From Vicinamibacteria bacterium (GTDB lineage: Bacteria; Acidobacteriota; Vicinamibacteria; Marinacidobacterales; Marinacidobacteraceae), in contig CAXXLQ010000004.1 in assembly GCA_963668695.2 (NCBI GenBank), positions 2,592,001-2,656,000 on the forward strand: a DNA stretch of 64,000 nt, given 5' to 3'. Both the position numbers and the translations under genes were made by a program. Below are positions 5,725 through 63,970 of the stretch, in pieces. Positions within the stretch are counted from its first letter, which is position 1, and each line of letters opens with the position of its first letter. The notes beneath the pieces are model-generated. The model worked only from the letters and a program-made list of their open reading frames with translations, searched no databases and was not told the DNA's origin.

Positions 5725-5742
5725 CCCCACCGGGAGATCTGG
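5725..5742 (+). repeat. 18-bp dispersed repeat copy (1 mismatch)
   Basis: CCCCACCGGGAGATCTGG. Confidence 0.8.
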
Positions 5743-6246
5743 CGCCAATCCCCGGGGCAGCCCTCTCGGTGGCGCGCGGCACGCGGGAGCGCGAAAGTAG
5801 CGCCGATGACGTTGCGCCCCGTCAACGCGAATACCGCGCGCGCTCCTCAGCCGTGGGTGCGGGGTCTACCGTGGAGCGAGCGCGTCAACCTGAGCCGCCA
5901 AACGGCTCGTCCGGGACACAAATCCGAGTGATCCGGATCACCGTGAACCGTCTTGACCCGGAAAGGCTATTGGCCAACGCGAGCCGCTCCACGGCGCTCG
6001 AGGTGTACCTGAACGAGTCTGACCCGGGTCCCACGTGCCGGAACCGGCTCGTCGAGGTCTTGCGGTTCCGGATTCCCGTCCCGGAACCCTCCGGGTTCAC
6101 GACGTCCGCGCGCTGAACCGTTCAGAGGCGGGGGCGGCGCGGACCGCCGGAAATCCGATCCGCTCATCGGGGGCACGACGCTCGACCCCGGGAAAGGGGT
6201 CGTGAAGATCGTGTCGTCCCGCAGCGACGCTGCGCCTCCGCAGCCC

Positions 6247-6304
6247 TCAGCGCGCGAGTGAGAACGGGTGGATCCGCCAGAAGTGGGCCCGGTAGCTGAA
6301 CACG
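6247..6304 (-). repeat. Second, shorter duplicate of the TolB-like gene 3' end
   Basis: Encodes VFSYRAHFWRIHPFSLAR*; near-identical to 4531..4588. Confidence 0.85.
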
Positions 6305-6352
6305 GGGTTCTTCCGATCTTCTGCAATCGGTTCGTTGTCCGGGTAGGGAGGA

Positions 6353-8137
6353 TCAGCGCCGGAGCGAGAACGGGCGGATACGCCAGAAGTGGGCCCGGTA
6401 GCTGAAGACGGTGAACGCGATCCGGTCGCCGAGCGGTGACCACGCGGGCTGGGTCTTGTGGGTGGGGTCCGAAGTGATCTGTTCCGGATCTCCACCGCCG
6501 AGCGGCACCCGGAAGACCTGAAAGAAGCCGTCGCCGGCGCGGTCGATGTAGGCCGCCCACCGGCCGTCCGGCGAGACCCCGATCCCGGAATGGATCTGGT
6601 CCGACCCGAACTCGTGGAAGCGGGCCGGCTCGCCGCCGGCGCGCGGGACCGTCCAGAGGCTCTTCCTGCCCACTGCCTCGGCGGCTTCGAAGAGGAGGGT
6701 CTCGCCTGAATCCGCCCACTCGGCCTGGATTACGTCCTGGTCGAAACCCCCGAGAGGCACCTGTTGCTGGCGTGCGGTCACTTCGCCCGTCTCCTGGTCC
6801 ACGCCGATGACGTAGAGGCCGCCGTGCCGGGCGCCGGATTCGTCCCGCCGGTAGCTCGTGAAGACCACGAAACGGCCGTCGGGGGACCAGCGCGCCCACC
6901 CGGTTTCGTGACCGTCCAGGCTGATCTGCCGGGCTCCGCTCCCGTCCGCCGCCATGAGCCAGATGTCGTCCGATTCCTCGTGGGTGTGGAAGACGATCCA
7001 GCGCCCGTTCGGCGACCACTGCATGCCCTGATCTTCGGAGTACGACTGCCGCACGATGCGCTGCGGTTCCCGGTGCGGCGTCTCGACGCTCACCGGAACC
7101 GTGCCGAGGTGCTGGGCGATGTCCGGATAGTGGATGTCGTCCGTTACGTGCCGCCAGCTTCCGTAGGTGAAGGCGATCTCGCTGCCGTCCGGACTCCACG
7201 TGGGAGTCTCCGACTGGAACGCGGTCAGCGGTTCGGAGGGTCCGCCGTCCGCCGGGGCGGTCGCCAGGAAGACCCGGTAGTCCTGGCTCTTGAACACGAC
7301 CTCGCCGCCCGCGCCCGCCGAAGGGGAATAGGCGTCGCGCGCGAATCTGGTGAGCCGGGTGCGCCGGCCACCGCTGACGCGGCGCATCCAGAGGTCGAGG
7401 AAGCCGCCCTCGCCCGGAACCCCGTAGATCACCCACTCCCCGTCCGGCGAGAAGGCGATGCGTCCGAAGGCTTCCTGATCGTCGAAGAGCGGTTCGGGCG
7501 CGGAACAGGGCAGATGCAGGTGCTGGCGCTGTCCGGTGCGGACGAGGCACGCGATCTGTCCATCGGGCGACCAGGCCGGGAAGGACAGCTGGTCTCCGCG
7601 GGCTTGCGGCGCCGCGTTCCCGCCGGCGGCGTCGAGGACCCAGAGTTGCGAAACGCCGTCGGCCCGGGTCACCCCGGCGACTGCGGAGCCGTCCACGGAC
7701 CAGCTCAATTGGCCCAGCGCCCCGGTTGCCGGCGCGGCGTCCGCCGGGCGATCGGGCCACAGCGGACTCCGGCTGCCGTCGGCCCGGTCGTAGATCCACC
7801 ACTCCTGGCGGCTGTGGTCGAAGACGTTCTCGTGAACCAGCACCCGGCGGCTGTCCGGGAACCAGGTCAGGTAGCGGATGGACGCCGTGCCCGGGCCGAG
7901 ACGCTGCGCCGCCCCTCCCGCAGCCGGGGCGAAGCGGATCTGACCCCGCTCCAGCGATGCCAGCCAGTTCCCGTCCGGTGAAATGGCCCCGACCGGGTCG
8001 CGGTAGGCGACCGGACCGGCCTGATCCGCGGTGGCGAGATAGTGAAGCGGTGGGAGCGTTCCCCGCTCGGGACGGTCTCCGCCGCACGCGGCGATCAGGA
8101 GAAGGGTTGCGCAGCCGAGGTGAGGGATTCCAGGCAT
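6353..8137 (-). CDS. TolB-like / PD40 beta-propeller lipoprotein
   Basis: Lipobox LIAAC; many WSPDG/SPDG repeats. Confidence 0.85.
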   Translation of the reverse strand: MPGIPHLGCATLLLIAACGGDRPERGTLPPLHYLATADQAGPVAYRDPVGAISPDGNWLASLERGQIRFAPAAGGAAQRLGPGTASIRYLTWFPDSRRVLVHENVFDHSRQEWWIYDRADGSRSPLWPDRPADAAPATGALGQLSWSVDGSAVAGVTRADGVSQLWVLDAAGGNAAPQARGDQLSFPAWSPDGQIACLVRTGQRQHLHLPCSAPEPLFDDQEAFGRIAFSPDGEWVIYGVPGEGGFLDLWMRRVSGGRRTRLTRFARDAYSPSAGAGGEVVFKSQDYRVFLATAPADGGPSEPLTAFQSETPTWSPDGSEIAFTYGSWRHVTDDIHYPDIAQHLGTVPVSVETPHREPQRIVRQSYSEDQGMQWSPNGRWIVFHTHEESDDIWLMAADGSGARQISLDGHETGWARWSPDGRFVVFTSYRRDESGARHGGLYVIGVDQETGEVTARQQQVPLGGFDQDVIQAEWADSGETLLFEAAEAVGRKSLWTVPRAGGEPARFHEFGSDQIHSGIGVSPDGRWAAYIDRAGDGFFQVFRVPLGGGDPEQITSDPTHKTQPAWSPLGDRIAFTVFSYRAHFWRIRPFSLRR

Positions 8138-8174
8138 GCGGGGAATCCTATGGGGGGAGGGGGAAGAACTCTGC

Positions 8175-8410
8175 GCGCGCTTCTTCTCAAGGGGCGATGG
8201 GAGTTTCGCCCGCTACGCGGGCGATGCCGGTGTGAACACCGGCGCTCCCAGCCGCCGCGCGCTTCTTCTCGGGGGGCGATGGGAGTTTCGCGGCCTTTGG
8301 CCGCGATGCCGGTCTGAAGTCCGGCGCTCCTACCCCGCGCTTCTTCTCGGGGGGCGATGGGAGTTTCGCCCGCTACGTGGACGATGCCGGTGTGAACACC
8401 GGCGCTCCTA
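8175..8410. repeat. Three tandem ~80-bp units, each with a REP-like hairpin (GATGCCGGTGTGAACACCGGCGCTCC)
   Basis: Units start near 8175, 8257 and 8337 and share GCTTCTTCTC..GGGGCGATGGGAGTTTCGC; the last abuts the rpsT stop. Confidence 0.9.
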
Positions 8411-8668
8411 GCCCTTGGCTACCAGGCGGGAGAGGCGGGACTTGGTGCGGGCCGCGGCGTTTCTGTGAAGGACCCGGCGGCTCGCCATCCGATCCAACAG
8501 GGCGATGGTCTCCGGCAGCTTCTGCTGACTGGTTTCCTGATCGCCGGCGGCGACGGCGGCGCGGAGGCTCTTGATCGCGGTTCGCAGGCGGCTCCGATGG
8601 TGCCGAGTGCGGAGGCGCTGCTCCTCACTCTGGCGAACGCGTTTCTTCGCGGATTTGCTGTGGGCCAT
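8408..8668 (-). CDS. rpsT: 30S ribosomal protein S20
   Basis: MAHSKSAKKRVRQ...HRNAAARTKSRL. Confidence 0.97.
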   Translation of the reverse strand: MAHSKSAKKRVRQSEEQRLRTRHHRSRLRTAIKSLRAAVAAGDQETSQQKLPETIALLDRMASRRVLHRNAAARTKSRLSRLVAKG

Positions 8669-8831
8669 ACGTCTCCGAACCCTATGTTCTCGAAGTGAAG
8701 TGGTCGGGTTCCGGAGAACCCACCATCAGGGAACTCGCGTCAAATCGCAGTTCGACCGGGCATTGTACCATCGCGCGCCCGGCGAGCGCCCATCACTGGA
8801 GGTGAGGGATGCGCCCCCCGGAAAAGGGGTG

Positions 8832-10181
8832 ATGGCCGTGATTGGTTGGCTGGATCGTTTCTTCGAGATCGGAGCCCGCGGCAGCACCCCGGGGCGCGAA
8901 GTGTTGGCCGGTGCGACCACCTGGCTGACCCTCGCCTACATCGTGCTGGTCAATCCCATCGTGCTCGGGGCGGCGGGGATGGATACCGGCGCGGTCATGG
9001 TGGCCACCTGCGTCGGTGCGGCGCTCGCGACGGCGTCCGCCGGAGTGTTCGCGCGCTTGCCGGTCGCCCTCGCGCCGGGAATGGGCCTCAACTTCTTCTT
9101 CGCCTTCACGCTGTGCGGAACCGCCGCCACCGGGGGATTCGGGCTGAGCTGGCAGCAGGCGCTCGCCGCCACCTTCATCGCCGGCGTCCTCTTCCTGGCG
9201 AGTTCGCTGTTCAAGCTTCGTTCGAAGCTGATGGACGCCGTCCCGGAACCCTTGCGGCACGGGATCGTGGCCGGCATCGGGTTGATGATCGCGGTGATCG
9301 GGCTTCGCTGGGCCGGTCTGCTGGTCGCCACCCCGAACATCTACATCGGGCCCGGCGACCTCGGGGCGCGCCCCGTGCAAGTTGCCCTGGCGGGGCTCAT
9401 CGTCACCGCCATCCTCGTGATCCGGCGGGTACCCGGAGCGCTGCTCATCGGCGCCGGGGTATCGGGCGTTTTGAGCCTGGGGTTCGGGCTCACCCAGTTC
9501 ACCGGGGTGGTTTCGGTGCCCCCCTCGATCCTCCCGACGTTTCTTGCGCTGGACTTCGGGGGTCTCTTCGCGGCGCCCACCTGGATCCTTGCGGTGGTCG
9601 TGCTCCTGATCGTGGACATGTTCGACACGATGGGGACCCTGCTCGGCGTTACGAGCCGTGCCGGACTGATGGAGGATGGACGCGTTCCCCGAGCCGAAGC
9701 GGCTTTCGCGTCCGATGCCGGCGGCACGATGCTGGGCGGCCTGCTCGGCACCTCCACCATCACCACCTACATCGAAAGCGCCGCCGGTATTGCCGCGGGC
9801 GGCCGGACCGGACTCACCGCGCTAACGACGGCCGGTCTGCTGCTGTGCTCGATGTTCTTCCATCCGCTGCTGTCCGTGATCGGCGGGGTGCCTATCGGGG
9901 AGGGGATCACGCTCTATCCGGTGGCGGCGCCCATCCTGATCCTGATCGGCATCTTCATGATGCCGGAGGTCGCCAAGGTGCCCTGGGACCGTCCCCTGGC
10001 GGCGATCCCGGCGTTCTTCGTGGTGGTGGGAATGCCCCTGACCACCAGCATCACGAACGGGATCGGCGCGGGCTTCATCGCCTGGTCCGCTCTCCACCTG
10101 CTCTCGGGGAAGGGCCGGGACGTCTCCTTGGTGATCCACGCCCTGGCCGGGCTCTTCGTGCTTTTCTTCCTGCTCGAATAG
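8832..10181 (+). CDS. NCS2/AzgA-family purine permease
   Basis: EVLAGATTWLTLAYIVLVNP, LAPGMGLNFFF, DMFDTMGT, TTYIESAAGIAAGGRTGLT. Confidence 0.93.
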   Translation: MAVIGWLDRFFEIGARGSTPGREVLAGATTWLTLAYIVLVNPIVLGAAGMDTGAVMVATCVGAALATASAGVFARLPVALAPGMGLNFFFAFTLCGTAATGGFGLSWQQALAATFIAGVLFLASSLFKLRSKLMDAVPEPLRHGIVAGIGLMIAVIGLRWAGLLVATPNIYIGPGDLGARPVQVALAGLIVTAILVIRRVPGALLIGAGVSGVLSLGFGLTQFTGVVSVPPSILPTFLALDFGGLFAAPTWILAVVVLLIVDMFDTMGTLLGVTSRAGLMEDGRVPRAEAAFASDAGGTMLGGLLGTSTITTYIESAAGIAAGGRTGLTALTTAGLLLCSMFFHPLLSVIGGVPIGEGITLYPVAAPILILIGIFMMPEVAKVPWDRPLAAIPAFFVVVGMPLTTSITNGIGAGFIAWSALHLLSGKGRDVSLVIHALAGLFVLFFLLE

Positions 10182-10215
10182 CGAGGAGGGTTCCCGGCGA
10201 CAATCGTCGTTCGAA

Positions 10216-11205: not shown

Positions 11206-11390
11206 AAGTTGCTCCTTGGCTGGTTCTCTAGCTTGCTGCGCGGCACCTTTGCCGGATCAGGCGGTCCACTCTCCGCACTCTTGGCAGGCGGTGGAGAAAA
11301 GTCAGTCGGCGTCGGTCCGCGGCGCGGAGCGCCGCGGGGGAGGGGGGTGGGGAGGAGTATCCCTGACCCACGAAAAACAATGGCGCGGGC

Positions 11391-11408
11391 CCCCACCGGG
11401 AGAACTGG
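11391..11408 (+). repeat. 18-bp dispersed repeat copy (exact)
   Basis: CCCCACCGGGAGAACTGG. Confidence 0.9.
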
Positions 11409-17522: not shown

Positions 17523-18383
17523 TCATTCCGCCGGGCTCCGGCCGGGTGGGGCCCCGATTCCATCTTCCCGCATCCCGATGCTGATCGTGTCGAACAAGAT
17601 GGCGACCGTGCCGGCGACGGTGAGGAAGACGGCGGCTTCGACCCCGAGAGTGGCGAGTTTCCGCACGTGCGCGGGGTCGCCGCCGAGGGGGAGGGTTCCG
17701 TAATCCAGGAAGGAACCCCCGAACGCCATCGCCGCGAGGCCGATCCCGACGTACCCGAGGATCCCGGCGCACGCCAGGATCAGGGCGCCTCGCAGGCCGG
17801 GACCGAAAGCGGGAACTCCCGGGGCCTCACTTCGGGAGGCGTTCGGGGGTCCCCAGACGAGCCGCATCATGACGAGTCCGGAGCCGAACAGTACGCCGCC
17901 CTGAAAGCCGCCCCCAGGGCTGATATGGCCATGAACGAGCACATAGACGGCAAATACCAGGACGGCCGGGACCAGGATTCTGGCGGCCGCGTCCAGCAGG
18001 ACGCTCCCGAACGGATGCGACATCCCGGGCCCGGGAAGATCGGCGCGGTCCCGGGCGGCCCCGGCGAGGATCACCAGGCAGCCCAGGCCGGCCGCGAAGA
18101 TCACCGCGGTCTCACCGAGGGTGTCATAGCCGCGGTAGTCCGCCAGCACCGCCGTGACCATGTTGGCGGCCCCCGTCTCCTCGGCCGCTTTCTCGATGAA
18201 ACGGGGAGAGACGTGGGTTGCGGCGGGAGAGGCGGGATCCCCGAACCGCGGGATCTCCGCCATGGCCAGGACGAGGCCGACAAAGAGAGCCGGGAACGCG
18301 ACGGCGCCGAGCAGCAGCCGGATGCGAGCCGATCCGCCCGGCCGCTTCCCGTGGGCCGCGGCGGGCGTGGACCCGTCCATCAA
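17523..18383 (-). CDS. mrpB: Mrp antiporter subunit B
   Basis: NMVTAVLADYRGYDTLGE and HGHISPGGGFQGG motifs. Confidence 0.9.
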   Translation of the reverse strand: MMDGSTPAAAHGKRPGGSARIRLLLGAVAFPALFVGLVLAMAEIPRFGDPASPAATHVSPRFIEKAAEETGAANMVTAVLADYRGYDTLGETAVIFAAGLGCLVILAGAARDRADLPGPGMSHPFGSVLLDAAARILVPAVLVFAVYVLVHGHISPGGGFQGGVLFGSGLVMMRLVWGPPNASRSEAPGVPAFGPGLRGALILACAGILGYVGIGLAAMAFGGSFLDYGTLPLGGDPAHVRKLATLGVEAAVFLTVAGTVAILFDTISIGMREDGIGAPPGRSPAE

Positions 18384-18631
18384 TCGAACCTCCGGCTCGT
18401 TCGAAACGCGGTCGAGACGAACAAGATGGTGGTCAGCGCCCCACCGACGCAGGCTTCGGTGAACGCGACGTCCACGGCGCCCATGAGCGCGAACCAGGTG
18501 GCGGCCGAAAAACTGAAGACGCCGAAGAGCGCCGCGGCCGCCAGCAGGTCTCTCACGGCCAGGGCAGTGACCCCCGCGAGCAGCATCACCGCGAGCAGTC
18601 CGACGCTGATCAGGTGTCCCTCAGCCATCAT
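18380..18631 (-). CDS. DUF4040 / MrpB-related small subunit
   Basis: RDLLAAA...AVDVAFTEACVG. Confidence 0.85.
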   Translation of the reverse strand: MMAEGHLISVGLLAVMLLAGVTALAVRDLLAAAALFGVFSFSAATWFALMGAVDVAFTEACVGGALTTILFVSTAFRTSRRFD

Positions 18632-18969
18632 CGCTCTCCGGACGGATCTTCCGCTTCATCCGCGCCCCACACGGGAACGCCGCTCTTCCTGGCCGCCCGG
18701 GCGAGGGCGTGCGTTGCCGTCGGGTTGGCCACCGCTACCAGGATCAGGACGAGCGCCAGCTTGACCGCCACCGCGGGATCCCGCGCCAGCAGGGCGAGCC
18801 CCAGGAGGCTGAGCGAGAGTCCGGCGGTGTCGCATTTCCCGATGGCGTGCAGACGAGTGAAGAAGTCGGGAAGGCGGAGGATCCCGACGACGGCGGCCAG
18901 GGTAAAGAAGAGCCCGGCCGCGAGAAGGACGACCGCGAGCGCGTCGGTAAGGTTGAGCCAGGAGATCAC
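18628..18969 (-). CDS. mrpG: Mrp antiporter subunit G
   Basis: GILRLPDFFTRLHAIGKCDT, NPTATHALARAA. Confidence 0.93.
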   Translation of the reverse strand: MISWLNLTDALAVVLLAAGLFFTLAAVVGILRLPDFFTRLHAIGKCDTAGLSLSLLGLALLARDPAVAVKLALVLILVAVANPTATHALARAARKSGVPVWGADEAEDPSGER

Positions 18970-19232
18970 GGGCTGCTTGATCCTTCGAAGTACTTCGCGA
19001 GGACCAGGGCGCTGAGGAATCCGATCAACGCGTAGGCGAGGGCGATGTCCGTGAACATCTCGGGCCTCCCGGAGAGCTCGCCCGCGACCACCAGCAGGAT
19101 CAGGGTCTTGGTCCCGATCAGGGCGACACCGGAAAGCCGGTCCCAGAGTGTCGGGCCGCGGACGACCCGGAAGAGCGATCCGCCGATCGCAAGAAAAATG
19201 GCGCCCGCGAAAGCGGTCAGCAAGACGGACAT
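18966..19232 (-). CDS. mrpF: Mrp antiporter subunit F
   Basis: RVVRGPTLWDR, DIALAYALIGF; ATG overlaps the mrpE stop. Confidence 0.9.
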   Translation of the reverse strand: MSVLLTAFAGAIFLAIGGSLFRVVRGPTLWDRLSGVALIGTKTLILLVVAGELSGRPEMFTDIALAYALIGFLSALVLAKYFEGSSSP

Positions 19233-19777
19233 CAGCGCGCCGGAGGGTCGAACAGCGCCCGCACTCTTGCCGCCATCGGTCCGCCGTCCGTACCCAGGCT
19301 TCTCGCGGCCTCCGGGTCGATGGCGTGGACCTCCATCCCGTCGTCGTCGCAATCGATGGTCACGGTGCCGGGAGTCAGGGTGATGGAGTGGGCGAGGGTA
19401 AGGCGGGCGATGGGATGGGGCAGGTCATCCACAATCCGTACCACCCGGGGAGCGATGGGGAGCCGGGGATGCAGCACCAGTTTCGCAACCTCGATCGCCG
19501 ACCGGAAGATCTGCACCACCAGCCACATCCAATAGCCGAGGAAAAGGCGCCACCGGAGCGGAGCCCGCCCGAATTCGTCCGGTGGCATCGGCTGGGGAGG
19601 CACCCGGTAGAGCCTGGCGGTCGCGAGCGCGACCGCGACGGCGGTGATCAGCCCGAGCGAGAGATGGAAGGTGTCCAGTTTTCCCGAAAGCGCAACCCAG
19701 AAGCCGAACAGCAGGACGACCGCTACGACCACCGGTCGGGTCCCCACCGGGAGGACTGGGCGCCGCCGATCCGACAT
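19232..19777 (-). CDS. mrpE: Mrp antiporter subunit E
   Basis: FWVALSG, LAHSITLTPGTVTI, VHAID; the N-terminus carries an 18-bp repeat copy (PVLPVG). Confidence 0.92.
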   Translation of the reverse strand: MSDRRRPVLPVGTRPVVVAVVLLFGFWVALSGKLDTFHLSLGLITAVAVALATARLYRVPPQPMPPDEFGRAPLRWRLFLGYWMWLVVQIFRSAIEVAKLVLHPRLPIAPRVVRIVDDLPHPIARLTLAHSITLTPGTVTIDCDDDGMEVHAIDPEAARSLGTDGGPMAARVRALFDPPAR

Positions 19778-19780
19778 TCA

Positions 19781-19830
19781 GGGAGAACGCCGGTCTTCAG
19801 GCCCACACCGGGAGAACTGGCGGCATCGCC
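19781..19830. repeat. REP-like hairpin interrupted by an 18-bp repeat (19803..19820)
   Basis: CGCCGGTCTTCAG-[insert]-CGGCATCG compared with intact CGCCGGTCTTCAGACCGGCA at 40648. Confidence 0.75.
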
Positions 19831-19919
19831 CGCCGGAGGCGGGCGAAACGCGCAAAGTTGGCGCTCTCACGGTGCCTTCTTTGCCCCGCTGAACGCTCTC
19901 CAGTTTTGAGGAATACGGG

Positions 19920-22884: not shown

Positions 22885-23879
22885 GTTCCGGGGCGGGGAA
22901 ACTGCGTCCGGCGCCAACGGGCGCGGAAGATCGATCCGCACGGAATCGGGCTTCGCCGGCGGCGGGGGATCCGCGGGCGGAGGAGTTTCTGAACCACCTC
23001 CGGGTGGAGCGCCGGCTTTCGGAAAACACGCTCGACGCTTACCGCCGCGATCTCGGGAAGCTGAACGAGTTCGGCGCCGGCCGTGCGCTTGCCGAATTCG
23101 ACACCAGGGATCTGCAGCGCTTTCTCACCCATCTGCACCGCCGCGGCCTCTCCTTCCGGTCAATACAGCGGGTCACCTCCGCGATCCGTGGCGCGTACGC
23201 GTTCCTGATGGCCGGTGGGGCCATCGAGAAGGATCCCACCGAGGGAATTACCGTGGCGCGGGCCCTGCCGGGGCTCCCCCGCTATCTGTCACCCGACGAA
23301 GTGGAGCGACTGCTCGCTGCGCCCGATGACTCCCCGCTGGGTCTGCGCGACCGGGCAATGCTCGAGATGCTCTACGCGACCGGTCTTCGGGTGTCGGAAC
23401 TCGTAGGCCTACGGGTAATCGATGCGGTTTCCGCGCGCGGCGAGGGGCCGGGCTACGTCACCGTGATCGGCAAAGGGGACAAGGAGCGCATCGTTCCCTA
23501 CGGAGATGTCGCCGCCGCGAGCCTGGAATCGTGGATACGGGAGGGGCGGCCCCGCGTGCTGGGGAAGCGGGGTCGGGAGACCGGGTCGCCCTGGCTCTTC
23601 GTGACGGCTCGCGGCGGGGCGATGACCCGTCAGCGGTTCTGGCAGATCGTCAGGACTCGCGGCGAACAGGCGGGGATCCCGCGCCGCTTCTCACCTCACG
23701 TGCTGCGCCACTCGTTTGCGACGCATCTGCTCGAGCGCGGGGCCGACCTGCGGAGCCTGCAACAGATGCTTGGCCACGCCTCGATCACCACCACCCAGAT
23801 CTACACCCACGTCACCGAGGAGCGCCTGCGGCGGGTGTACGACGAGCACCATCCGCGCGCCCGGCGCGGCGATTCCTAG
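22881..23879 (+). CDS. xerD: Tyrosine recombinase XerD
   Basis: LYATGLRVSEL, GKGDKERIVP, MTRQRFWQIV, SPHVLRHSFATHLL...LGHASITTTQIYTHV. Confidence 0.92.
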   Translation: MSSGAGKLRPAPTGAEDRSARNRASPAAGDPRAEEFLNHLRVERRLSENTLDAYRRDLGKLNEFGAGRALAEFDTRDLQRFLTHLHRRGLSFRSIQRVTSAIRGAYAFLMAGGAIEKDPTEGITVARALPGLPRYLSPDEVERLLAAPDDSPLGLRDRAMLEMLYATGLRVSELVGLRVIDAVSARGEGPGYVTVIGKGDKERIVPYGDVAAASLESWIREGRPRVLGKRGRETGSPWLFVTARGGAMTRQRFWQIVRTRGEQAGIPRRFSPHVLRHSFATHLLERGADLRSLQQMLGHASITTTQIYTHVTEERLRRVYDEHHPRARRGDS

Positions 23880-24151
23880 TGGCCTGTCGATAAAGTGGCG
23901 GGAGCGCAGAGAGCGGCGAGGCCCAGTTCTCCCGGTGGGGCCAGTTCTCCCGGTGGGGGCCCGGCTGACAAGGCGCGCGAGGGAGGAGCCCCCACCGGGA
24001 GAACTGGCCCTGGTGTATTTCGACCGAAGCGTAACGATGAGCGAGGCGAAGCCCCAGTTCTCCCGGTGGGGGCGCGGTTCAGCCGGGATGCATCGCCGGT
24101 CGAGCCCCCACCGGGAGAACTGGGCCGCGTGACTTTGTCGACAGGCTGCTA
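23877..24151 (+). mobile_element. MITE family 1 copy carrying five 18-bp insertions
   Basis: Ends TAGTGGCCTGTCGATAAAGT / ACTTTGTCGACAGGCTGCTA; 18-mers at 23923, 23941, 23990, 24054, 24106; begins in the xerD stop. Confidence 0.85.
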
Positions 24152-24164
24152 AGGGCCCTTTCCG

Positions 24165-24770
24165 ATGCCCTTCGACGCTGGCGGAAAGAGGCAGTTCCCG
24201 GTGGGGCGTTTGTCGGAAGTGCAGGCGAAGGCGGTCGACCGGATGGCCGCGGATCTGCGCTCCGGCGCCGTGGTGGCCTTCCCCACCGAAACCTTCTATG
24301 CACTGGGCGCCGATCCACGCTCCGCTGAAGCGGTGTCCGAGGTATTCCGCCTCAAGGGTCGCCCGGGGGACCGCCGGCTGCCCTGGATCGCCGCGAGCCG
24401 GGCGCAGGTAGAAGGCGTCTGCCATCTGCCCGAAACGGCGGCCGCCTTCGCGGATCGCTACTGGCCTGGTCCCGTCACCCTGGTACTGCCGCTCCGTAGC
24501 CCTGGTGGGGAAGGGGTGGCGGTCCGGGTGAGTTCGCATCCGCTGGCGCGGGCGCTGGCTGAAGCCCTCGGCCATCCGGTGGTTTCGACGAGCGCCAATC
24601 CGAGCGGCCGGCCGCCGGCGGCTACCGCCTCCGAGGTCCGAGAGGCGTTCTCGGGCCAGAACGCGCAGAACCTCCGGATCCTGGATGGAGGACGGACCCC
24701 GGGCGGGGAACCCTCCGTCATCGTCGATCTGACGGGTGCGTCGCCCAGGATCCTGAGAGGAAGGCTCTAA
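24165..24770 (+). CDS. tsaC: L-threonylcarbamoyladenylate synthase (TsaC/YrdC/Sua5)
   Basis: VVAFPTETFYALG, KGRP, WPGPVT, STSANPSG. Confidence 0.92.
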   Translation: MPFDAGGKRQFPVGRLSEVQAKAVDRMAADLRSGAVVAFPTETFYALGADPRSAEAVSEVFRLKGRPGDRRLPWIAASRAQVEGVCHLPETAAAFADRYWPGPVTLVLPLRSPGGEGVAVRVSSHPLARALAEALGHPVVSTSANPSGRPPAATASEVREAFSGQNAQNLRILDGGRTPGGEPSVIVDLTGASPRILRGRL

Positions 24771-25025
24771 CAGCCTGTGGTGGAACCCGGGTGAGCGCCG
24801 AGAGCGGCCAGTTCTCCCGGTGGGGGCGAGGCCCAGTTCTCCCGGTGGGGGTCCGGCTGACAAGGCGCGTGAGGGAGGAGCCCCCACCGGGAGAACTGGC
24901 CCGAGTGTATTTCGACCGAAACGCAACGACGAGCGGCGCACAGCGGCGCGGTTCAGGCTGGATGGATCGCCGCTCGAGCCCCCACCGGGAGAACTGGGCC
25001 GCGTGGGTTTCACCACCGGCTGTTA
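24768..25025 (+). mobile_element. MITE family 1 copy carrying four 18-bp insertions
   Basis: Ends TAACAGCCTGTGGTGGAACCC / GGGTTTCACCACCGGCTGTTA; 18-mers at 24808, 24833, 24882, 24980; begins in the tsaC stop. Confidence 0.85.
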
Positions 25026-25044
25026 ACCCCGGCGCCAGGGCGAA

Positions 25045-40727: not shown

Positions 40728-40912
40728 TAACAGCCTGTGGATAAAGTGGCGTGAGCGCCGAGAGCGGTGAGGCGCCCGGCTGACAAGGCGCGCGAGGGAG
40801 GAATACCGGGTGTATTTCGACCGAAGCGCAACGATGAACGACGCGAAGCGGAGTGTTTCAGCCGGGATGGATCGCCGCTCGAACGCCGCGAGACTTTGTC
40901 CACAGGCTGTTA
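40728..40912 (+). mobile_element. MITE family 1, empty 185-bp copy
   Basis: TTAACAGCCTGTGGATAAAGT / ACTTTGTCCACAGGCTGTTAA (20 of 21 inverted match); no ORF and no 18-mer. Confidence 0.9.
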
Positions 40913-57284: not shown

Positions 57285-57488
57285 TAGCAGCCGGCAGACA
57301 ACGTCACGCGGTGTTCGACCGGCGATGCATCCCGGCTGAACCGCGCCGCTTCGCGTCGCTCATCGTTGCGCTCCGGTCGAAAGACACGGGGTATTCCTCC
57401 CTTGCGCGCCTTGTCAGCCGGGCGCCTCACCGGCCAGTTCTCCCGGTGGGGGCCTCGGCACTCGCGCCACCTTGTCCACCGGCTACTA
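57285..57488 (-). mobile_element. MITE family 1 copy between antitoxin and toxin, one 18-bp insertion at 57434
   Basis: Reverse-orientation match to 40728..40912; TA at both ends. Confidence 0.88.
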
Positions 57489-57830: not shown

Positions 57831-57873
57831 GATGCCGGCCAGAGGCCGGCCCAGTTCTCCCGGTGGGGGCTCC
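57831..57873. repeat. REP-like hairpin with an 18-bp insertion (57851..57868)
   Basis: GATGCCGGCCAGAGGCCGGC-[CCAGTTCTCCCGGTGGGG]-GCTCC. Confidence 0.85.
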
Positions 57874-57958: not shown

Positions 57959-60565
57959 CTACAACTCCGCAAGCGCCTCGCGGAGGGCTCTGGCGGCGTC
58001 CGCGACGGCTTCCCCGTCATCCCCGTCCAGCGTGATGCGAGTCCCCTCGGAACCGGGGTACGAGCCGATCTCGACTGTCGGATAGGCCGCAACCAGGCGG
58101 TCAAGAAGGGGGATCAGCTCCTCTTCGGGGCGCGGAACCAGTTCCTCGTCGGCGAAGTACCGAGGTCCTTCGGGAAGACACTCGGCGAGGATCCCGAGCT
58201 TCTTTTCGAAGACGGGTGGCAGGCCCGGGAGGATCCAGACGTTCCGCATGACGACCACCGGCCAGGCGCCGCTTTGTCCTTCGCGGAGCTCGCATCCCTC
58301 CGGAACGCGGGCGAGATCGCGGTGGGTGGTTTCGAGGCCGCGCTGCCTCAGCGTGTCGAGAAAGCGGGGGTGATGGATCACCCCGGTTCCGAACGCGCGG
58401 GCGACGCCCTCCATGGTGACATCGTCGTGCGTGGCGCCTACACCTCCGGAAGTGAACACGAGATCGTGACCCGCGGCGAGTGCGGCCGTCTCCGCGGCGA
58501 TGACTTCCGGTTCGTCGGGAATCGTCAACACCCGCTGCAGAGCCACCCCCTTTTCCCGAAGCAGGCGGGCGAGGAGGCGGGTGTTCGTGTCGGTCACTTT
58601 CCCGGAGAGGATTTCGTTGCCGATCACCAGGAAGGCGGCGGTCCTTCTCCGCGGCGCCCGAGGGGATCCCTCCGGCGGGGGGCGATCCGTCGCTGCGGGG
58701 TCCGGGTCCTCCGGAAGGGAGTCCCGCACGGCGGCGAGAAAGCGGGCGCCGTACTTCTCGATCTTCGCCGGGCCGACTCCGCGCAGGCGCGCGAACTCCG
58801 CCGCGGAGGGCGGCCTGCGGGCGGCCATTTCGTGGAGGGTGGCGTTCGAGAACACCATGAAGGCCGGAAGCCCTTCCTCCCGTGCGATAGCGAGGCGCAG
58901 CGCCCGCAGCTTCTCGATGAGAGCCGGGTCGGGAGCGGGCGCTTCGCCGTCGGCCGCTGCGGAGTCGCGGGACTCTTGGTCCGGGGGCGCCGCCTTCGGA
59001 CGGGTCAGGGTGAGGGACTCCCGGTTCCGGAGAAACGCCCACCCCGCGGGGGTCAGGGACATGGTTGGGAACCCGCTGTCGCCGGCGCGGCGGAGCAGGT
59101 CCCGGGCGACGAGCTTGTCCGCGGTGTCCCGCAAATCCTCCTCCCGATGATCGCGTGCGATGCCGTGGACGCTCAGCCGGTCGTGCCCGAGGTCCAGAAC
59201 CCGCTTCGCCCGCGAGCCGCGCAGCACCGCCACGACGTGGGCCATGCCGAAACGCTGTCCGGTGCGGACCACCCCGGAGAGGATCTTCTGGGTGATCTCG
59301 GTGGCGTCGTACTCCTCGATCTCGCCGCCGGTTCCGGGTCCCAGGCAGTTGTCGCAGCCCCCGCAGTTCTCCAATTCCTCAAGCGAGGCGTCCGAGAAGT
59401 AGTCGAGCAGGTAGCGTCGCCGGCAGGAGGTGAGTTCGCAGTAGGCGATCATCTGGGCGAGCCTTTCCTGCGCGCGCTGGCGTTCGGCGGGATCTTCGAT
59501 CTCGTGGATGAACCGCTGCTGGGCGGCCCGATCGGCGACGCTGAAGAACAGGACACATTCGCTCGAAAGGCCGTCGCGTCCGGCGCGCCCGGTCTCCTGG
59601 TAGTAGCCCTCCACCGACTTCGGGAGGTTGTAGTGCGCAACGAGGCGCAGGTCGGGCATGTCAATCCCCATCCCGAACGCGATCGTGGCCGCCACGATCA
59701 ACGCCTCCTTGCTGGCGAACCGGTCCTGCGCCGACCGGCGCTCCTCGTGGTCGAGTCCGGCGTGGTAGGCCAGAGCGCGGAAACCCAGCGCGCGGAGCCG
59801 CTCGGCCACCGATTCCGTTTCCCTCCGCGAGAGGCAGTACACGATGGCGGACTCCCCCTCGTGTTCCCGCAGGAGTCCGACGAGAAGGTCGAAGGAACGC
59901 CGTTTGGGTCGCACCCGGTAGTTGAGGTTGGGACGATTGAAGCTCCCCACGAAGAACTCGGGGTCCTCCATCCGGAGTTCGGAGGCGATTTCCCGGCGGA
60001 CCCGCTCAGTGGCGGTCGCGGTGAGCGCCAGAAAGGGGGCCGCCGGGAAGCGGTCGCGCAGCGCTCCCAGGTTCCGGTAGTCAGGCCGGAACTCATGACC
60101 CCACTGGGAGATGCAGTGGGCCTCGTCCACCGCCACCAGCGCCACCCGGATCCGTTCGAGGAACCGCCCGAAGCCCGCGGAGGCGAGACGCTCCGGCGCT
60201 ACGTAGAGCAGCTTTACCTTGCCGGCTTGCGCCTCCTCCCGGACGAGCCGCGCCTCTTCGGAGGTGAGCGAACTGTTGAGGGAGCGGGCGGCGATCCCCC
60301 GCGCCCGGAGCGCATCCACCTGGTCCTTCATCAGGGCGATCAGGGGCGAAATGACCAGGGTGACGCCGTCGAGGGCGAGCGCCGGAAGTTGGTAGCAAAG
60401 CGATTTGCCCCCGCCAGTGGGCATCAGCACCACCGTGTCCCGCCCGGCCAGGACGCTGGTGATCGCCGGTTCCTGCAGCGGTCGGAAGCTCTGGTAGCCG
60501 AAGTGTTCCTTCAGCAGGGAAAGCGGAGTGGGCTTCGCCGACCCGGCCTCTGGTGCGCTCTGCAT
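57959..60565 (-). CDS. recQ: RecQ helicase fused to a C-terminal COG1058/CinA-like (molybdopterin-binding fold) domain
   Basis: MPTGGGKS, DEAHCISQWGHEFRPDY, QETGRAGRDG, Zn-binding CRR..CGGCDNC, RQC, HRDC; then IGNEILSGKVTDTN, TSGGVGATHDDVT, LPGLP. Confidence 0.9.
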   Translation of the reverse strand: MQSAPEAGSAKPTPLSLLKEHFGYQSFRPLQEPAITSVLAGRDTVVLMPTGGGKSLCYQLPALALDGVTLVISPLIALMKDQVDALRARGIAARSLNSSLTSEEARLVREEAQAGKVKLLYVAPERLASAGFGRFLERIRVALVAVDEAHCISQWGHEFRPDYRNLGALRDRFPAAPFLALTATATERVRREIASELRMEDPEFFVGSFNRPNLNYRVRPKRRSFDLLVGLLREHEGESAIVYCLSRRETESVAERLRALGFRALAYHAGLDHEERRSAQDRFASKEALIVAATIAFGMGIDMPDLRLVAHYNLPKSVEGYYQETGRAGRDGLSSECVLFFSVADRAAQQRFIHEIEDPAERQRAQERLAQMIAYCELTSCRRRYLLDYFSDASLEELENCGGCDNCLGPGTGGEIEEYDATEITQKILSGVVRTGQRFGMAHVVAVLRGSRAKRVLDLGHDRLSVHGIARDHREEDLRDTADKLVARDLLRRAGDSGFPTMSLTPAGWAFLRNRESLTLTRPKAAPPDQESRDSAAADGEAPAPDPALIEKLRALRLAIAREEGLPAFMVFSNATLHEMAARRPPSAAEFARLRGVGPAKIEKYGARFLAAVRDSLPEDPDPAATDRPPPEGSPRAPRRRTAAFLVIGNEILSGKVTDTNTRLLARLLREKGVALQRVLTIPDEPEVIAAETAALAAGHDLVFTSGGVGATHDDVTMEGVARAFGTGVIHHPRFLDTLRQRGLETTHRDLARVPEGCELREGQSGAWPVVVMRNVWILPGLPPVFEKKLGILAECLPEGPRYFADEELVPRPEEELIPLLDRLVAAYPTVEIGSYPGSEGTRITLDGDDGEAVADAARALREALAEL

Positions 60566-60699
60566 TCGGCACCCGGCAGCCTACCCGACCGCGCTCGGCG
60601 GATGGCCGAGCGGCGGTTTGGAGTGCCTTCGTTGTGGTGTCCAGCAGGCGCGGCCCATCCCGTCCCGGAACCGGGGGCATGCCGCCGTGTGGTGGGAGC

Positions 60700-61837
60700 G
60701 GCTCACTCTTCAGGAGGTGTCCCTCGCCGGGTTCGTCCGGAGCGTGGGACATCGCGAACCACCGGCGCTCGACAGGATCCTGATCGCGCGGGCGCGGCAG
60801 TGCCCGCTGGTCCTGCTGCTGGACGAGGCGCATACGCTCGACCTCGGGCGGGTTTAGCAGCCGGTGATGAAACCCACGCGGCCCAGTTCTCCCGGTGGGG
60901 GCTCGGCCGGCGATCCATCCCGGCCAAACAACCGGTGATGAAACCCACGCGGCCCAGTTCTCCCGGTGGGGGCTCGGCCGGCGATCCATCCCGGCCAAAC
61001 AACCGGTGATGAAACCCTCGCGGCACCAGTTCTCCCGGTGGGGGCTCACGTGGGTTCCATCCATCCCGGCTGAACCGCGTCGCTGCGCGCCGCTCATCGT
61101 TGCGTTTCGGTTGGAATACACGCGGTATTCCTCCCTCACGCGCCTTGTCAGCCGGGCCCCCACCGGGAGGACTGGCCCCACCGGGAGAACTGGGCCTCGC
61201 CCCCACCGGGAGAACTGGCCGACCTCGGCGCTCACGTGGGTTCCACCACCGGCTGTTCACCGCGTCGCTTCGCGCCGCTCATCGTTGCGTTTCGGTCGGA
61301 ATACACGCGGTATTCCTCCCTCACGCGCCTTGTCAGCCGGGCCCCCACCGGGAGAACTGGGCCTCGCCCCCACCGGGAGAACTGGGCCTCGCCCCCACCG
61401 GGAGAACTGGCCGACCTCGGCGCTCACGTGGGTTCCACCACCGGCTGTTCACCGCGTCGCTGCGCGCCGCTCATCGTTGCGTTTCGGTCGGAATACACGC
61501 GGTATTCCTCCCTCACGCGCCTTGTCAGCCGGGCCCCCACCGGGAGGACTGGCCCCACCGGGAGAACTGGGCCTCGCCCCCACCGGGAGAACTGGCCAGC
61601 CTCGGCGCTCACGTGGGTTCCACCACCGGCTGCTAGCTGAACGCGAGCCAAATGGTGGGACGTGACCTTCCCTTCCTGCTCGTGCTCGCCGGGACGCCCA
61701 ACCTGGAGACGCACCTGAACCGGTTGGGCGCCTCGTGCTGGAGTCGCGCCGAACGCCCGCGTATCGGGACGCTGGATGGGAACGCCACCGCCCTGGCTTT
61801 CCGGGAGCCGTTCCGGCCCGTAGCCGCCGTCCTCTGA
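60700..61837 (+). pseudogene. AAA/ATP-binding protein fragment interrupted by a composite repeat
   Basis: PLVLLLDEAHTLDLGRV (Walker B) before the insert; LNASQMVGRDLPFLLVLAGTPNL continues in frame after it; no Walker A seen. Confidence 0.7.
60855..61635 (-). mobile_element. Composite tandem MITE family 1 array with twelve 18-bp repeats
   Basis: TA-flanked; 71-bp tandem units at the left and three ~185-192-bp units; 18-mers at 60883, 60954, 61026, 61158, 61176, 61201, 61343, 61368, 61393, 61535, 61553, 61578. Confidence 0.88.
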
Positions 61838-61844
61838 ACGGCGT

Positions 61845-62684
61845 TCAGGGTTCGCTTACCAGGTATGCAATCCAGGTTTCGTCGGCGGAGCCTTCGGTGA
61901 CCTCGTCGAACTCCCCGTTGCCGTCACCGTTTTCGTCGGCCCCTTCCCAGAGCACGACGGTTTTCGAGAACCCCGCCTCCGCCAGGAGTTCATGGAGCTC
62001 GGGAAGCGACCAGAAACGCCACTGGTAGCGGAAGGCGTTTCTCAGCCGGCTCCCATCCGGAAACTCGTAGTGGATCGCGCACCGCATGCGTCCGCTGATG
62101 GGGTCGAAGGCCACCTGGTCCCAGATGAAGTCGAATCCGTCCTCTTCGCGCGCGTACTCCTTTTCTTCGTGGCAATCCGAACCACCGTAGGCGTCGATAA
62201 AGAAGAGTCCGTCGGAGTTGAGAGTTCTTCGGACGCGCTCGAAGTAGTCCCGCACCAGGTCCCGCGTCTCGAAGATCCAGTAGCTGAAGTTCATCGCGGC
62301 GATCAGATCCACCCGGGGCTCGGTGACATCCAGGACGTCGCTTTCGACCAGGTCGATCCGCCCTTGTTCCGAGCGGCTCAGTTTCGCGATGTTGTTTTCG
62401 CGGCCCCAGGCGAGCGGGTCCGGATCGAGATCCACCCCGATCGCCCGGCTTTCGGGATGCCGTACGACAAATTCGCAGGAGAGGGCGGCGGTGCCGCAAA
62501 AATCCTCGCGGAAGGAGAGCGCCCGGCGAGCGCGACGGCGGTGAAATTCGTCATCCAGGAAAGCGGCGTCGGCCGGCGCGTCCTGAACCGAATTCTGGTA
62601 GAGCAGATAGCGGTCCGCCCGGTCGGCCATCGACGGACGGCGCCTGCCGCCCCGGCTCGGGCTTCGACTCACGCGACGACTCAT
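61845..62684 (-). CDS. Class I SAM-dependent methyltransferase
   Basis: LYQNSVQ, REDFCGTA, GVDLD, AMNFSYWIF, F.YQWRFWSLPEL. Confidence 0.9.
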   Translation of the reverse strand: MSRRVSRSPSRGGRRRPSMADRADRYLLYQNSVQDAPADAAFLDDEFHRRRARRALSFREDFCGTAALSCEFVVRHPESRAIGVDLDPDPLAWGRENNIAKLSRSEQGRIDLVESDVLDVTEPRVDLIAAMNFSYWIFETRDLVRDYFERVRRTLNSDGLFFIDAYGGSDCHEEKEYAREEDGFDFIWDQVAFDPISGRMRCAIHYEFPDGSRLRNAFRYQWRFWSLPELHELLAEAGFSKTVVLWEGADENGDGNGEFDEVTEGSADETWIAYLVSEP

Positions 62685-62696
62685 GCGGCGAGACCG

Positions 62697-62881
62697 TAAC
62701 AGCCGGTGGTGGAACCCGGGTGAGCGCCGAGGCCGGTGAGGCGCCCGGCTGACAAGGCGCGTGAGGGAGGAATACCGGGTGTATTTCGACCGAAACGCAA
62801 CGCAGAGCGCCGCAAGGCGGCGCGGTTCAGGCGGGATGGATCGCCGCTCGAACGCCGCCTGGGTTTCCCCACAGGCTGTTA
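62697..62881 (+). mobile_element. MITE family 1, empty 185-bp copy
   Basis: TAACAGCCGGTGGTGGAACCC / GGGTTTCCCCACAGGCTGTTA; colinear with 40728..40912. Confidence 0.88.
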
Positions 62882-62951
62882 AGGGTTACCCCGGAACGAA
62901 CGTCAGGAGGTGTGATTCAGGGTCATCGGGGGGCTACTCCCCGGCTCTTCG

Positions 62952-63350
62952 TCAGTGCAGCGTGACCGGTTCACTCAACGTGAACTCCGCGATCTCGACC
63001 TTGAAGCGGTCCCCTCCGGGGATCTCCATCAGGTAGGAGCCTCGCATCGAGCCGAAGGGTGCGCGCAGTGGACACCATGAGGAGTAGTGAAAGGACTCGC
63101 CCGGGACGAGATAGGGGCGAGCCCCGACCACTCCGGGACCTCGCACCTCTTCGAGCTGTCCTTCGCCGTGCTCGATGACCCAGTGACGACTCAGGAGTTG
63201 CACCAATTCCTGTGACTCGTTGGTGATGGCGACGTCGTACCGAAACAGCCACGCCGGGTCCGGCTCGGGGCGCCGGTCGGCGAAACGCGCTTCCACATCC
63301 ACTCGAATTCCCCGGGTTATGGAGGAAGAAGTGAAGACCTCCTGGCGCAC
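62952..63350 (-). CDS. apaG: ApaG protein
   Basis: QLLSRHWVI, EVRGPGVVG, GSMRGSY. Confidence 0.95.
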   Translation of the reverse strand: MRQEVFTSSSITRGIRVDVEARFADRRPEPDPAWLFRYDVAITNESQELVQLLSRHWVIEHGEGQLEEVRGPGVVGARPYLVPGESFHYSSWCPLRAPFGSMRGSYLMEIPGGDRFKVEIAEFTLSEPVTLH

Positions 63351-63487
63351 GGATTTGATCGTAGCACGCGGTCAGCCAGCCCGTGGGCGGAGTCGCGTGC
63401 GCACCGAGGTCCCACGGGAAGAGTCGGAATTCGCCAGTTGAGCATCCCCCGAGAGAACCGGGCCGCGCGGTTTTGTCCAGGCGCTGG

Positions 63488-63970
63488 TAGCAGCCGGTGG
63501 TGGAACCCGGGTGAGCGCCGAGGCGGGCGAGACGCCCGGCTGACCAGGCGCGTGAGGGAGGAGCCCCCACCGGGAGAACTGGCCCGGGTGTATTTCGACC
63601 GAAACGCAACACAGAACGGAGCGCAGCGGAGTGGGTAACAGCCGGTGGTGGAACCCGGGTGAGTGCCGGGTCCGGCGAGGCGCCCGGCTGACCAGGCGCG
63701 TGAGGGAGGAGCCCCCACCGGGAGAACTGGGCCGCGCGGGTTTCATTACCGGCTGTTTGGCCGGGATGGATCGCCGGCCGAGCCCCCACCGGGAGAACTG
63801 GGCCGCGCGGGTTTCATTACCGGCTGTTTGGCCGGGATGGATCGCCGGCCGAGCCCCCACCGGGAGAACTGGGCCGCTTGGGTTCCACTACCGGCTGTTT
63901 GGCCGGGATGGATCGCCGGCCGAGCCCCCACCGGGAGAACTGGGCCGCCTGGGTTTCGCCACCGGTTGGT
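63488..63970 (+). mobile_element. Composite MITE family 1 array with 71-bp tandem units and five 18-bp repeats
   Basis: MITE left ends at 63488 and 63636; 18-mers at 63565, 63713, 63784, 63855, 63926. Confidence 0.88.

Follow-up and report, generated by a model that had tools for sequence, protein, structure and literature searches.

The window analysed here, a stretch of 64,000 nt at positions 2592001-2656000 of contig C4 of the source genome (G000), contains an 18-nt sequence, CCCCACCGGGAGAACTGG (hereafter the unit), which is dispersed on both strands and lies mostly inside other repeats. The G000 assembly comprises 4.095 Mb in 4 contigs with 67% G+C, and its completeness and contamination are estimated at 91.7% and 9.3%, respectively. 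Copies were counted per mismatch class on both strands. At up to two mismatches the window holds 32 matches, 27 of them exact and 5 with one mismatch, compared to 0.04 expected from 100 dinucleotide-preserving shuffles; the original prediction was right about coordinates and strands, and its count of about 34, nearly all exact, is corrected to these numbers. Genome-wide, 1,288 exact copies were found (640 forward and 648 reverse) against an expectation of 0.0009 per strand under a third-order Markov model, a comparison that had been proposed from the window alone. Another 278 copies carry one mismatch, 65 two and 48 three, which gives 1,631 copies at up to two mismatches. In 200-kb bins the copies showed no preference for a strand or replichore, and a role like that of the FtsK-orienting polar sequences (KOPS) or Chi was ruled out.

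Most copies are held by a miniature inverted-repeat transposable element (MITE) of 179 bp with the ends CAGCC...GGCTG, which has its own terminal inverted repeats and a TTAA target-site duplication on both sides. Empty copies of this MITE, which had been located from the sequence at 40728 and 62697, lie on the forward strand at 40731-40909 (TTAA on both sides) and at 62700-62878 (taken as the reference copy); both measure 179 bp and read as described. The three filled copies reported at 23877, 24768 and 63488 were likewise found with units at the named places. The first, at 23880-24157 (forward), holds five units (23923-, 23941-, 23990+, 24054- and 24106+), and in the relatives G004 and G001 the orthologous site has no MITE at all. 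The second, TTAA-flanked at 24771-25022 (forward), carries four units at 24808, 24833, 24882 and 24980, which correspond to the MITE sites 36-, 43-, 74+ and 154+. The third, at 63491-63943 (forward), consists of two partial MITEs with a unit at site 74 (63565 and 63713), followed by an array with a 71-nt period whose units lie at 63784, 63855 and 63926 and which runs to the window end. A unit on the reverse strand at 57434-57451 occupies site 36 (+19) of a MITE fragment. Finally, a composite array at 60860-61640 starts with three 71-nt repeats of the MITE right end plus a unit (60883-, 60954- and 61026-) and continues with three MITE bodies (61158-61578, forward), each with three units at 18- or 25-nt spacing. 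In the 71-nt-period arrays (60883-61043 and 63713-63943), the MITE right end contributes 53 nt and is joined to one unit; a spacing of 71 occurs 109 times in the genome.

A second host is the repetitive extragenic palindromic (REP) hairpin REP2 (GCCGGTC-TGAA-GACCGGC). Its 13-nt arm motif has 535 matches in G000, some of which are chance matches in genes, and the unit follows it in 102. In the window, a unit with one mismatch lies in a REP2-type hairpin at 19803-19820 (forward); the orthologous G004 site is empty and exactly 18 nt shorter, in agreement with the predicted +18. Further contexts are other small hairpins and two genes. Solo units of the window comprise an exact copy at 11391-11408 (forward) in the loop of a small GCGCG/CGCGC hairpin, a context with a second copy elsewhere in the genome, an exact copy at 57851-57868 (reverse) beside a GCCGGCC..GGCCGGC REP-type hairpin, and a copy with one mismatch, GAGATCTGG, at 5725-5742 (forward) outside any MITE.

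The lengths of 126 paired MITEs form a ladder of 18: 179 (16 elements), 197 (11), 215/216 (14), 233/234 (14), 251/252 (11), and 268-270 and up. Elements with a unit at site 36, which adds 19 nt, measure 198, 216, 234 or 252, so that both the +18 and the +19 steps read from the window recur genome-wide. Once the units were cut out, 69 of the 126 MITEs went back to 179-180 nt. Each site has a fixed orientation: 36(-), 43(-, often doubled), 74(+), 120(-), 154(+) and 167(+), plus rarer ones. Occupancy is combinatorial: 72 MITEs show 27 patterns, and 18 of the 72 are empty; MITEs filled at site 36 or 43 tend to be filled at site 74 too (odds ratio 4.8, p=0.004), among elements that are not independent of one another. 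Unit pairs in -+ arrangement at 49 nt occur 148 times in the genome, and unpaired single units are also common.

The boundaries of the unit are sharp. Among 1,287 exact copies, position -2 is G in 87%, position -1 is C in 87% and position +2 is C in 92%, as expected from the claim that GC usually precedes it; the core measures 18 nt, and in effect the unit acts as the 20-mer GC+CCCCACCGGGAGAACTGG. Across sites this 20-mer replaces 1-3 bases with a net gain of 18 or 19 and no target duplication, a rule that had been deduced within the window and was seen at orthologous filled and empty pairs. Head-to-tail doubles, already noted there, number 140 in the genome, together with 2 triples, one run of four and one run of five. 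The unit shows none of the features that define MITEs and transposons, since it has neither terminal inverted repeats nor a target-site duplication, and, as also stated originally, it is not a REP palindrome: folded alone it reaches -3.4 kcal/mol (z=+0.78), and 163 of 200 shuffles fold as well. All six reading frames are free of stops, as read from the sequence, and the frame PHRENW is in use in a gene. Judged by 16-mer counts across G000, at least one flank is repeated in 1,592 of the 1,631 copies (~97%); greedy clustering sorted the flanks into 82 contexts, 30 of them with at least 3 members.

Two side observations concern the unit sequence. The MITE right-end terminus (..CCACCACCGGCTG) and the start of the unit (CCCCACCGG...) have the core CCACCGG in common (62700-62721 and 62857-62878 versus the unit), which may reflect either a common binding protein or chance in GC-rich DNA. 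Parts of the unit also duplicate in tandem: in G018, a genome of a different genus, the 13-nt sub-unit CCGGGAGAACTGG follows a full unit three times (L207).

To compare orthologous sites, 400 kb each, syntenic with the window region, were fetched from G001 (~95% identical) and G004 (~90%). Filled and empty alleles of the same sites were present in these relatives, and the alignments show that orthologous host repeats of sister species differ in occupancy both ways. Thus the MITE at 24771, with sites 36, 43, 74 and 154 filled in G000, has only site 36 filled in G004, is inverted with one unit in G001, and is missing in G008. In a 198-bp MITE that is otherwise identical, the site-36 unit of G001 and G004 is missing in G000, and in another MITE G000 and G001 are reciprocal at two sites on a backbone with 4 substitutions in 298 nt. 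The unit at 11391 is present in G000 and G001; G004 reads GCGCG-AAT-CGCGC without it. Over the 302,367 positions (27,752 mismatches) aligned between G000 and G004, there were 56 gaps of 15-40 nt, and 17 of them bear a unit, which G004 lacks in 10 cases and G000 in 7; of the 14 gaps that measure exactly 18 nt, 11 are units. The other gaps of 15-40 nt were, by eye, mostly tandem duplications of adjacent sequence. Since alignments of at least 1.5 kb often end at MITEs, this method under-counts. At the TTAA site of 24767-25026 (L103-L105), the MITE has one orientation in G000 and G004 and the opposite one in G001, and none is present in G008, which points to rapid MITE turnover or to inversion.

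Outside the window, an AcrB/AcrD/AcrF-family gene (G000:C4:393139-396336; Pfam E=6.6e-241) holds an exact unit in frame, right after the DD-containing helix, where it adds six codons read as PHRENW. The unit is present in G000 and G001, and exactly 18 nt are missing in G004, G006, G008, G009, G010 and G013. The empty junction GAGCCCG-CG-CGGGATG becomes GAGCCCG-GC+unit-CGGGATG, which means that GC plus the unit has taken the place of the central CG of CCCGCGCGGG, in the middle of a 10-bp palindrome, without any duplication. By its distribution, the AcrB copy is a polarised gain in single-copy coding DNA. Altogether, 96 units lie in stop-to-stop frames with coding-like G+C at third codon positions, mostly at the 5' edge, where frames run into stop-poor MITEs; the AcrB and MnhE cases were looked at individually. 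The latter is a unit variant with A13G at 19742-19759 (forward) in the N-terminal coding region of an MnhE-family gene (19234-19777, reverse strand; Pfam MNHE E=4.7e-32), where it is read PVLPVG. In G004 and in run X8 this copy (19753) shows a 12-nt internal duplication within the unit.

The exact 18-mer was found in 21 of 41 related genomes, which belong to 5 of 16 genera and all to one family: G000, all 15 other genomes of the genus that were searched, and four more genera. Two other genera of the family and 16 genomes from two sister families gave no match, and neither did the reversed control sequence (0 hits) in this search. The number of units does not track the number of MITEs: G000 has 642 MITE cores and 1,288 units, G004 434 and 631, G010 104 and 15, G020 52 and 1, G014 28 and 87, and G018 22 and 220. 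Within the genus the copy number varies from 15 to 1,288, about 100-fold. By eye, about 10 of the 15 units of G010 lie in REP2 hairpins and two in MITEs. In G018, the identical 18-mer stands beside or inside another REP hairpin (GCCGGACT..AGTCCGGC) and at MITE sites that are unused in G000. G020 has a single exact unit and no other copy. Of the 80 loci listed for the 20-mer, 79 belong to metagenome-assembled genomes of Acidobacteriota / Vicinamibacteria / 'Ca. Marinacidobacterium', and the remaining one lies on a 6-kb contig labelled Gammaproteobacteria. Viral contigs gave 0 exact matches to the 20-mer, an Rfam scan of the window returned no family at the gathering score, and our literature searches found no description of this repeat.

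These counts come from a genome with an exceptional repeat load for a 4-Mb bacterium, in which 21% of all 16-mers are repeated and which carries, besides the 642 MITE cores, hundreds of REP2 hairpins. Some stretches are 99-100% identical between or within contigs (C1:39658-40278 and C4:394138-394758; C4:107691-109190 and C4:3881708-3883208). They are probably assembly redundancy or a second strain, and the copy counts are therefore slightly inflated.

The unit is nearly invariant where its surroundings diverge. Among 20 units at orthologous positions, aligned without gaps and at no more than 6 mismatches, there were 7 mismatches in 360 positions versus 179 in 1,575 positions of the +-60-nt flanks, so that orthologous units are about 6-fold more conserved. 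Allowing for the near-consensus choice of the G000 copy, some 20 changes would be expected from the other lineage alone (Poisson P(<=7) ~8e-4). Together with the identity across genera, this speaks for a sequence-specific constraint, be it selection, biased conversion or re-templating.

The variants of the unit tell how copies are related. The A13G variant is found at sites 43 and 36 in 127 of 156 cases: 84 lie at site 43, and the other 43 at site 36 or the 25-nt repeat of that site. Elsewhere in the MITE it is rare, with 2 among the 309 units of site 74 and 1 among the 333 of site 154. Of the copies with the one-base deletion delA, 14 of 16 are at site 36, and 21 of 26 G18C copies are in REP2. 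Flank substitutions are also constant per site, with AT->GC and A->C at site 74, and with GTCCGG after single units and GCCCGG after doubles at site 43. Variants and flank changes tied to sites imply that the copies at one site are related to each other rather than each drawn from one master, and most of the ~1,600 copies are therefore not independent insertions. The spread seems to have proceeded mainly through the multiplication of filled host repeats and gene-conversion-like copying between them, not through fresh insertion. Changes in place at orthologous MITEs are likewise explained by the copying of filled and empty alleles between paralogous hosts. A de novo insertion has to be assumed only where the unit first reached a given context, and true events of this kind number perhaps tens.

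The original prediction had invoked a templated write-in, either templated by reverse transcriptase or resembling gene conversion, that favours GC-rich hairpin-forming DNA. We take the multiplication of filled host repeats, together with gene-conversion-like copying between them, as the main route of spread. As to the targets, all hosts form hairpins, and several junctions lie in hairpin loops or palindrome centres: AcrB (CCCG-CG-CGGG), GCGCG-AAT-CGCGC, GGC^GCC at site 43 and the REP2 loop. In predicted folds, inverted unit pairs zip the host MITE into long perfect stems. The pair 43-/74+ reaches -29.5 kcal/mol (z=-6.2); the empty MITE (62700-62878) folds at -50.4 kcal/mol (z=-3.2) and the four-unit MITE (24771-25022) at -94.9 kcal/mol (z=-10), with 36- paired to 154+ and 43- to 74+. 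For REP2, the 3' half of the unit is predicted to pair with the 5' arm of the hairpin. The inner hairpin of the MITE itself (~105-125, e.g. 62805-62825) varies by paired changes (GCGCCGC..GCGGCGC, CCCCGC..GCGGGG, ACGGAGC..GCGGAGT) with the stem preserved, which suggests that structure and not sequence is kept there.

The unit has entered many unrelated contexts with the same sharp boundaries, with 1-3 bases replaced, a net +18 or +19 and no target duplication. Since its locations include at least 6 MITE sites, at least 2 REP families and one gene, and since the numbers of units and MITEs are uncoupled across genomes, the proposal that it is a separate entity entering other repeats stands. Our favoured explanation, to which we give a probability of roughly 0.5, is that it is a very small non-coding mobile sequence resembling the small dispersed repeats (SDRs) of cyanobacteria, rarely inserted de novo through a trans-acting factor and amplified by its hosts. 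De novo insertion would be rare, in the order of tens of events, and most of the ~1,600 copies would stem from the multiplication of filled MITE and REP copies, between which filled and empty alleles would be exchanged by short-patch, gene-conversion-like copying. The sharp ends and the invariance across genera argue for a sequence-specific factor, protein or nucleic acid, which may recognise or template the unit at GC-rich, hairpin-prone DNA. This factor is not a recognisable reverse transcriptase or REP-associated tyrosine transposase (RAYT) in G000.

Several results weigh against this explanation. No RVT_1 domain was detected in G000 (0 candidates in a genome that is 91.7% complete, where absence is not proven); the reverse-transcriptase version of the predicted write-in is left without support, and we dropped this enzyme as the factor. 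In the same incomplete genome, neither a search with hidden Markov models for Y1_Tnp nor tblastn with the RAYT-like proteins of sister genomes gave a match, and no autonomous element bounded by MITE ends was found. The prediction that the window holds no candidate enzyme agrees with our searches and extends to the genome. The search for an autonomous parent gave five pairs of terminal inverted repeats 0.7-4 kb apart; of the three pairs looked at, one flanks an amidase gene, and two correspond to a duplicated 2.1-kb stretch, in which two separate MITEs surround ordinary sequence with no Pfam hit. The claimed preference for hairpins did not reach significance in a single narrow test, in which 19.5% of the 82 context clusters had a perfect stem of at least 4 bp closing no more than 4 nt from the junction, versus 13.7% of 20,000 random and 11.0% of 328 displaced junctions, and which misses larger loops such as that of REP2; we regard this part of the prediction as unconvincing. 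At MITE and REP sites, gain and loss are mostly indistinguishable, and only one polarised gain lies in unique DNA. One locus suggests a loss in G000, given that the unit of both G001 and G004 is the same delA variant there. Moreover, filled and empty alleles differ by substitutions besides the indel; neither allele therefore derives from the other in a single clean step, which fits allele copying as well as insertion. Lastly, the estimate of 6-fold conservation leaves out aligned units with gaps or more than 6 mismatches and is therefore biased towards conservation. The original prediction is thus supported in part: a separate entity without terminal inverted repeats or target duplication, with empty orthologous sites, but with most copies not independent, an unconvincing preference for hairpins, and neither a reverse transcriptase nor another enzyme found in the window or the genome.

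A more specific version, which we can only put forward tentatively, is a dedicated integration system, guided by protein or nucleic acid, for which GC-rich hairpins and palindromes would be the targets: a 20-nt cassette of fixed sequence would be written into their loops or centres, with the removal of 1-3 bases and without target duplication. If it exists, its recognition requirement would explain the invariance of the 18-mer across genera, and DNA mobility would extend below the size of any known transposable element, in principle in common with the cyanobacterial SDRs.

It is possible, albeit doubtful, that no dedicated mobility exists at all, and that a few accidents, such as template switching at stalled forks or hairpins, were followed by MITE and REP proliferation and ectopic gene conversion among hundreds of paralogous copies, with a bias towards filled alleles keeping the unit uniform. 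Site-specific variants and flank changes, the repeated flank of ~97% of the copies, the linked substitutions that separate filled from empty alleles, orthologous changes running in both directions and one apparent precise loss that restores the canonical empty allele would all be accommodated. However, AcrB and other contexts have no flanking homology to donors and yet show the same sharp 18-20-nt ends, where template switching should leave ragged ones. The sole exact copy of G020 has no donor in its genome for conversion, and in G018, in another genus, the same unit sits in different host repeats.

We consider it unlikely that the unit is a by-product or satellite of a REP-RAYT system. RAYTs cleave and rejoin REP single strands, and here the Y1 HUH transposase would move an 18-20-nt segment between REP cleavage sites, with fossils kept in RAYT-less genomes. 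RAYT-like Y1 transposase genes with an HVH motif (...PNHVHVL...) were seen in G001, G008, G010 and G014 (L169-L174); those of G001 and G010 stand between arrays of 9-20 REP2 hairpins spaced ~80-110 nt apart, the classical REP-RAYT layout. These arrays, the prevalence of REP2 contexts in the low-copy G010, the pairing of the unit with the REP2 arm and the REP hairpin at the G018 unit are in line with such an origin. But the flanking arrays themselves hold 0 units (loci L170 and L174), the unit is not a hairpin, and Y1_Tnp was matched neither in G000 (1,288 units) nor in G004 (631), G018 (220) and G019 (36), compared to one match in G010 with 15 units. Occupancy also differs between G000 and G001 at orthologous sites, even though G000 lacks the enzyme. 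Given its absence from G000, G004, G018 and G019, RAYT was set aside as the enzyme; its gene appears to have been lost in G000 and G004.

Quite improbable, in our judgement, is a functional motif under selection or molecular drive, such as a site for a nucleoid, transposition or regulatory protein, or a sequence like an uptake signal. It would account for the conservation of orthologous units, the exact sequence kept across 5 genera, the equal use of both strands (640 vs 648), the frequent inverted pairs, the minus orientation of left-end and plus orientation of right-end MITE sites, which recalls subterminal binding sites, and the core shared with the MITE terminus. Nevertheless, a host function or an uptake signal would hardly be expected to differ ~100-fold in copy number inside one genus and to be missing from two genera of the family; in addition, almost all copies lie within selfish repeats, and a function leaves the writing of an identical 18-mer into new places unexplained. 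The range of 15-1,288 copies within the genus and the repeated flank of 1,592 of 1,631 copies do not fit a DNA uptake sequence, which should be dense and fairly even in all related genomes with the motif and lie often in ordinary genes. An assembly or adapter artefact, which had been named as a way in which the prediction could fail, can be dismissed, because two DNA runs of separate studies (X1 and X2) yielded short-read contigs that span 17716-19850, including the units at 19742 and 19803, with 1-2 letters differing, the unit occurs in 21 separately assembled genomes, and two assemblies have the in-frame insertion in common. Contigs over MITE parts were also present in one metatranscriptome run, where contigs can neither show transcription nor exclude DNA, and in run X8, from a more divergent strain and not used as evidence, a contig skips the REP region at 19803.

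The unit lacks what defines a REP sequence or REPIN, a MITE, a retro-templated insert or an uptake sequence. The small dispersed repeats SDR1-8 of Nostocaceae cyanobacteria, reportedly described by Elhai et al. in 2008, are said to be 21-27 nt long and to lack target-site duplications. By this description they would be the closest precedent, and the comparison made in the original prediction is apt, given a tiny unit nested in repeats without target duplication. Both are far below coding size, dispersed in hundreds to thousands of copies in both orientations, nested in other repeats or MITEs and found in tandem, with possible mobility by an unexplained mechanism and no enzyme linked to them. 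Like SDRs, the unit inserts within other repeats or conserved sequence (MITE sites, REP2 and AcrB, with empty orthologues), and 1-3 bases are replaced and none duplicated. In contrast, it belongs to another phylum, sits in unrelated host repeats and has 18-20 nt, a length of the same order as the 21-27 nt of SDRs but just below it. It also adds a polarised in-frame gain in a gene, quantified filled and empty orthologues, invariance across genera and a mostly host-mediated spread. The SDRs of Nostocaceae are cited in PMC3116915, PMC2884548 and PMC5861425, and the parts of the last, a 2018 paper, that we consulted report no SDR-like repeat in HIP1-enriched cyanobacterial genomes outside one cyanobacterial family.

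REP sequences and REPINs with their RAYT (Y1 HUH) transposases are treated in the consulted parts of Bertels and Rainey 2011 (PMC3116915), and repeats of the bacterial interspersed mosaic element (BIME) or palindromic unit (PU) type are mentioned in those of PMC2884548. The unit resembles REPs and REPINs as a short GC-rich intergenic repeat whose inverted doublets form long hairpins, and REP2, a true REP family that flanks RAYT-like genes in the genus, hosts it. Unlike them, it is not palindromic, is absent from the RAYT-flanking REP arrays and is abundant without a detectable RAYT. Mosaic repeats are represented by the BIMEs of E. coli and by the pneumococcal BOX elements with a variable number of boxB. 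The host MITE resembles these, as a variable number of a short module gives a length ladder, whereas the unit has at least 6 separate sites of fixed orientation and is not confined to the element, being present in other repeat families and in a gene as well. In Rickettsia, palindromic elements of ~100-150 bp lie in frame within genes. The unit is likewise a tolerated stop-free in-frame insertion (in a cytoplasmic-side loop after the DD-containing helix of AcrB), but adds only 6 codons, with one clear intragenic case. The DNA uptake sequences (DUS/USS) of Neisseriaceae and Pasteurellaceae are exact short motifs in ~10^3 copies. The unit also has ~10^3 exact copies, equal strands, frequent inverted pairs and conservation across the family; it differs in its 100-fold copy range in the genus, in lying almost always in MITEs or REPs and in gaining new copies by insertion and not by point mutation.

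Ever since the description of the cyanobacterial SDRs, the question has stood how sequences of ~20 nt can act as mobile DNA, and the unit offers an independent SDR-like case in another phylum. It also calls for caution, since an apparent burst of micro-insertions turned out to be due for the most part to allele copying and to hitch-hiking on MITEs and REPs. The case is tractable: many long-read genomes of one family with 0 to ~1,300 copies, clean filled and empty sites and one dated in-frame gain make gene-repeat co-occurrence analysis and the mapping of gains and losses feasible, and the case lends itself well to a search for the responsible factor by comparative genomics. For the organism itself, the genome is reshaped, in that the units and their hosts contribute to its 21% of repeated 16-mers and a transporter can gain six residues.

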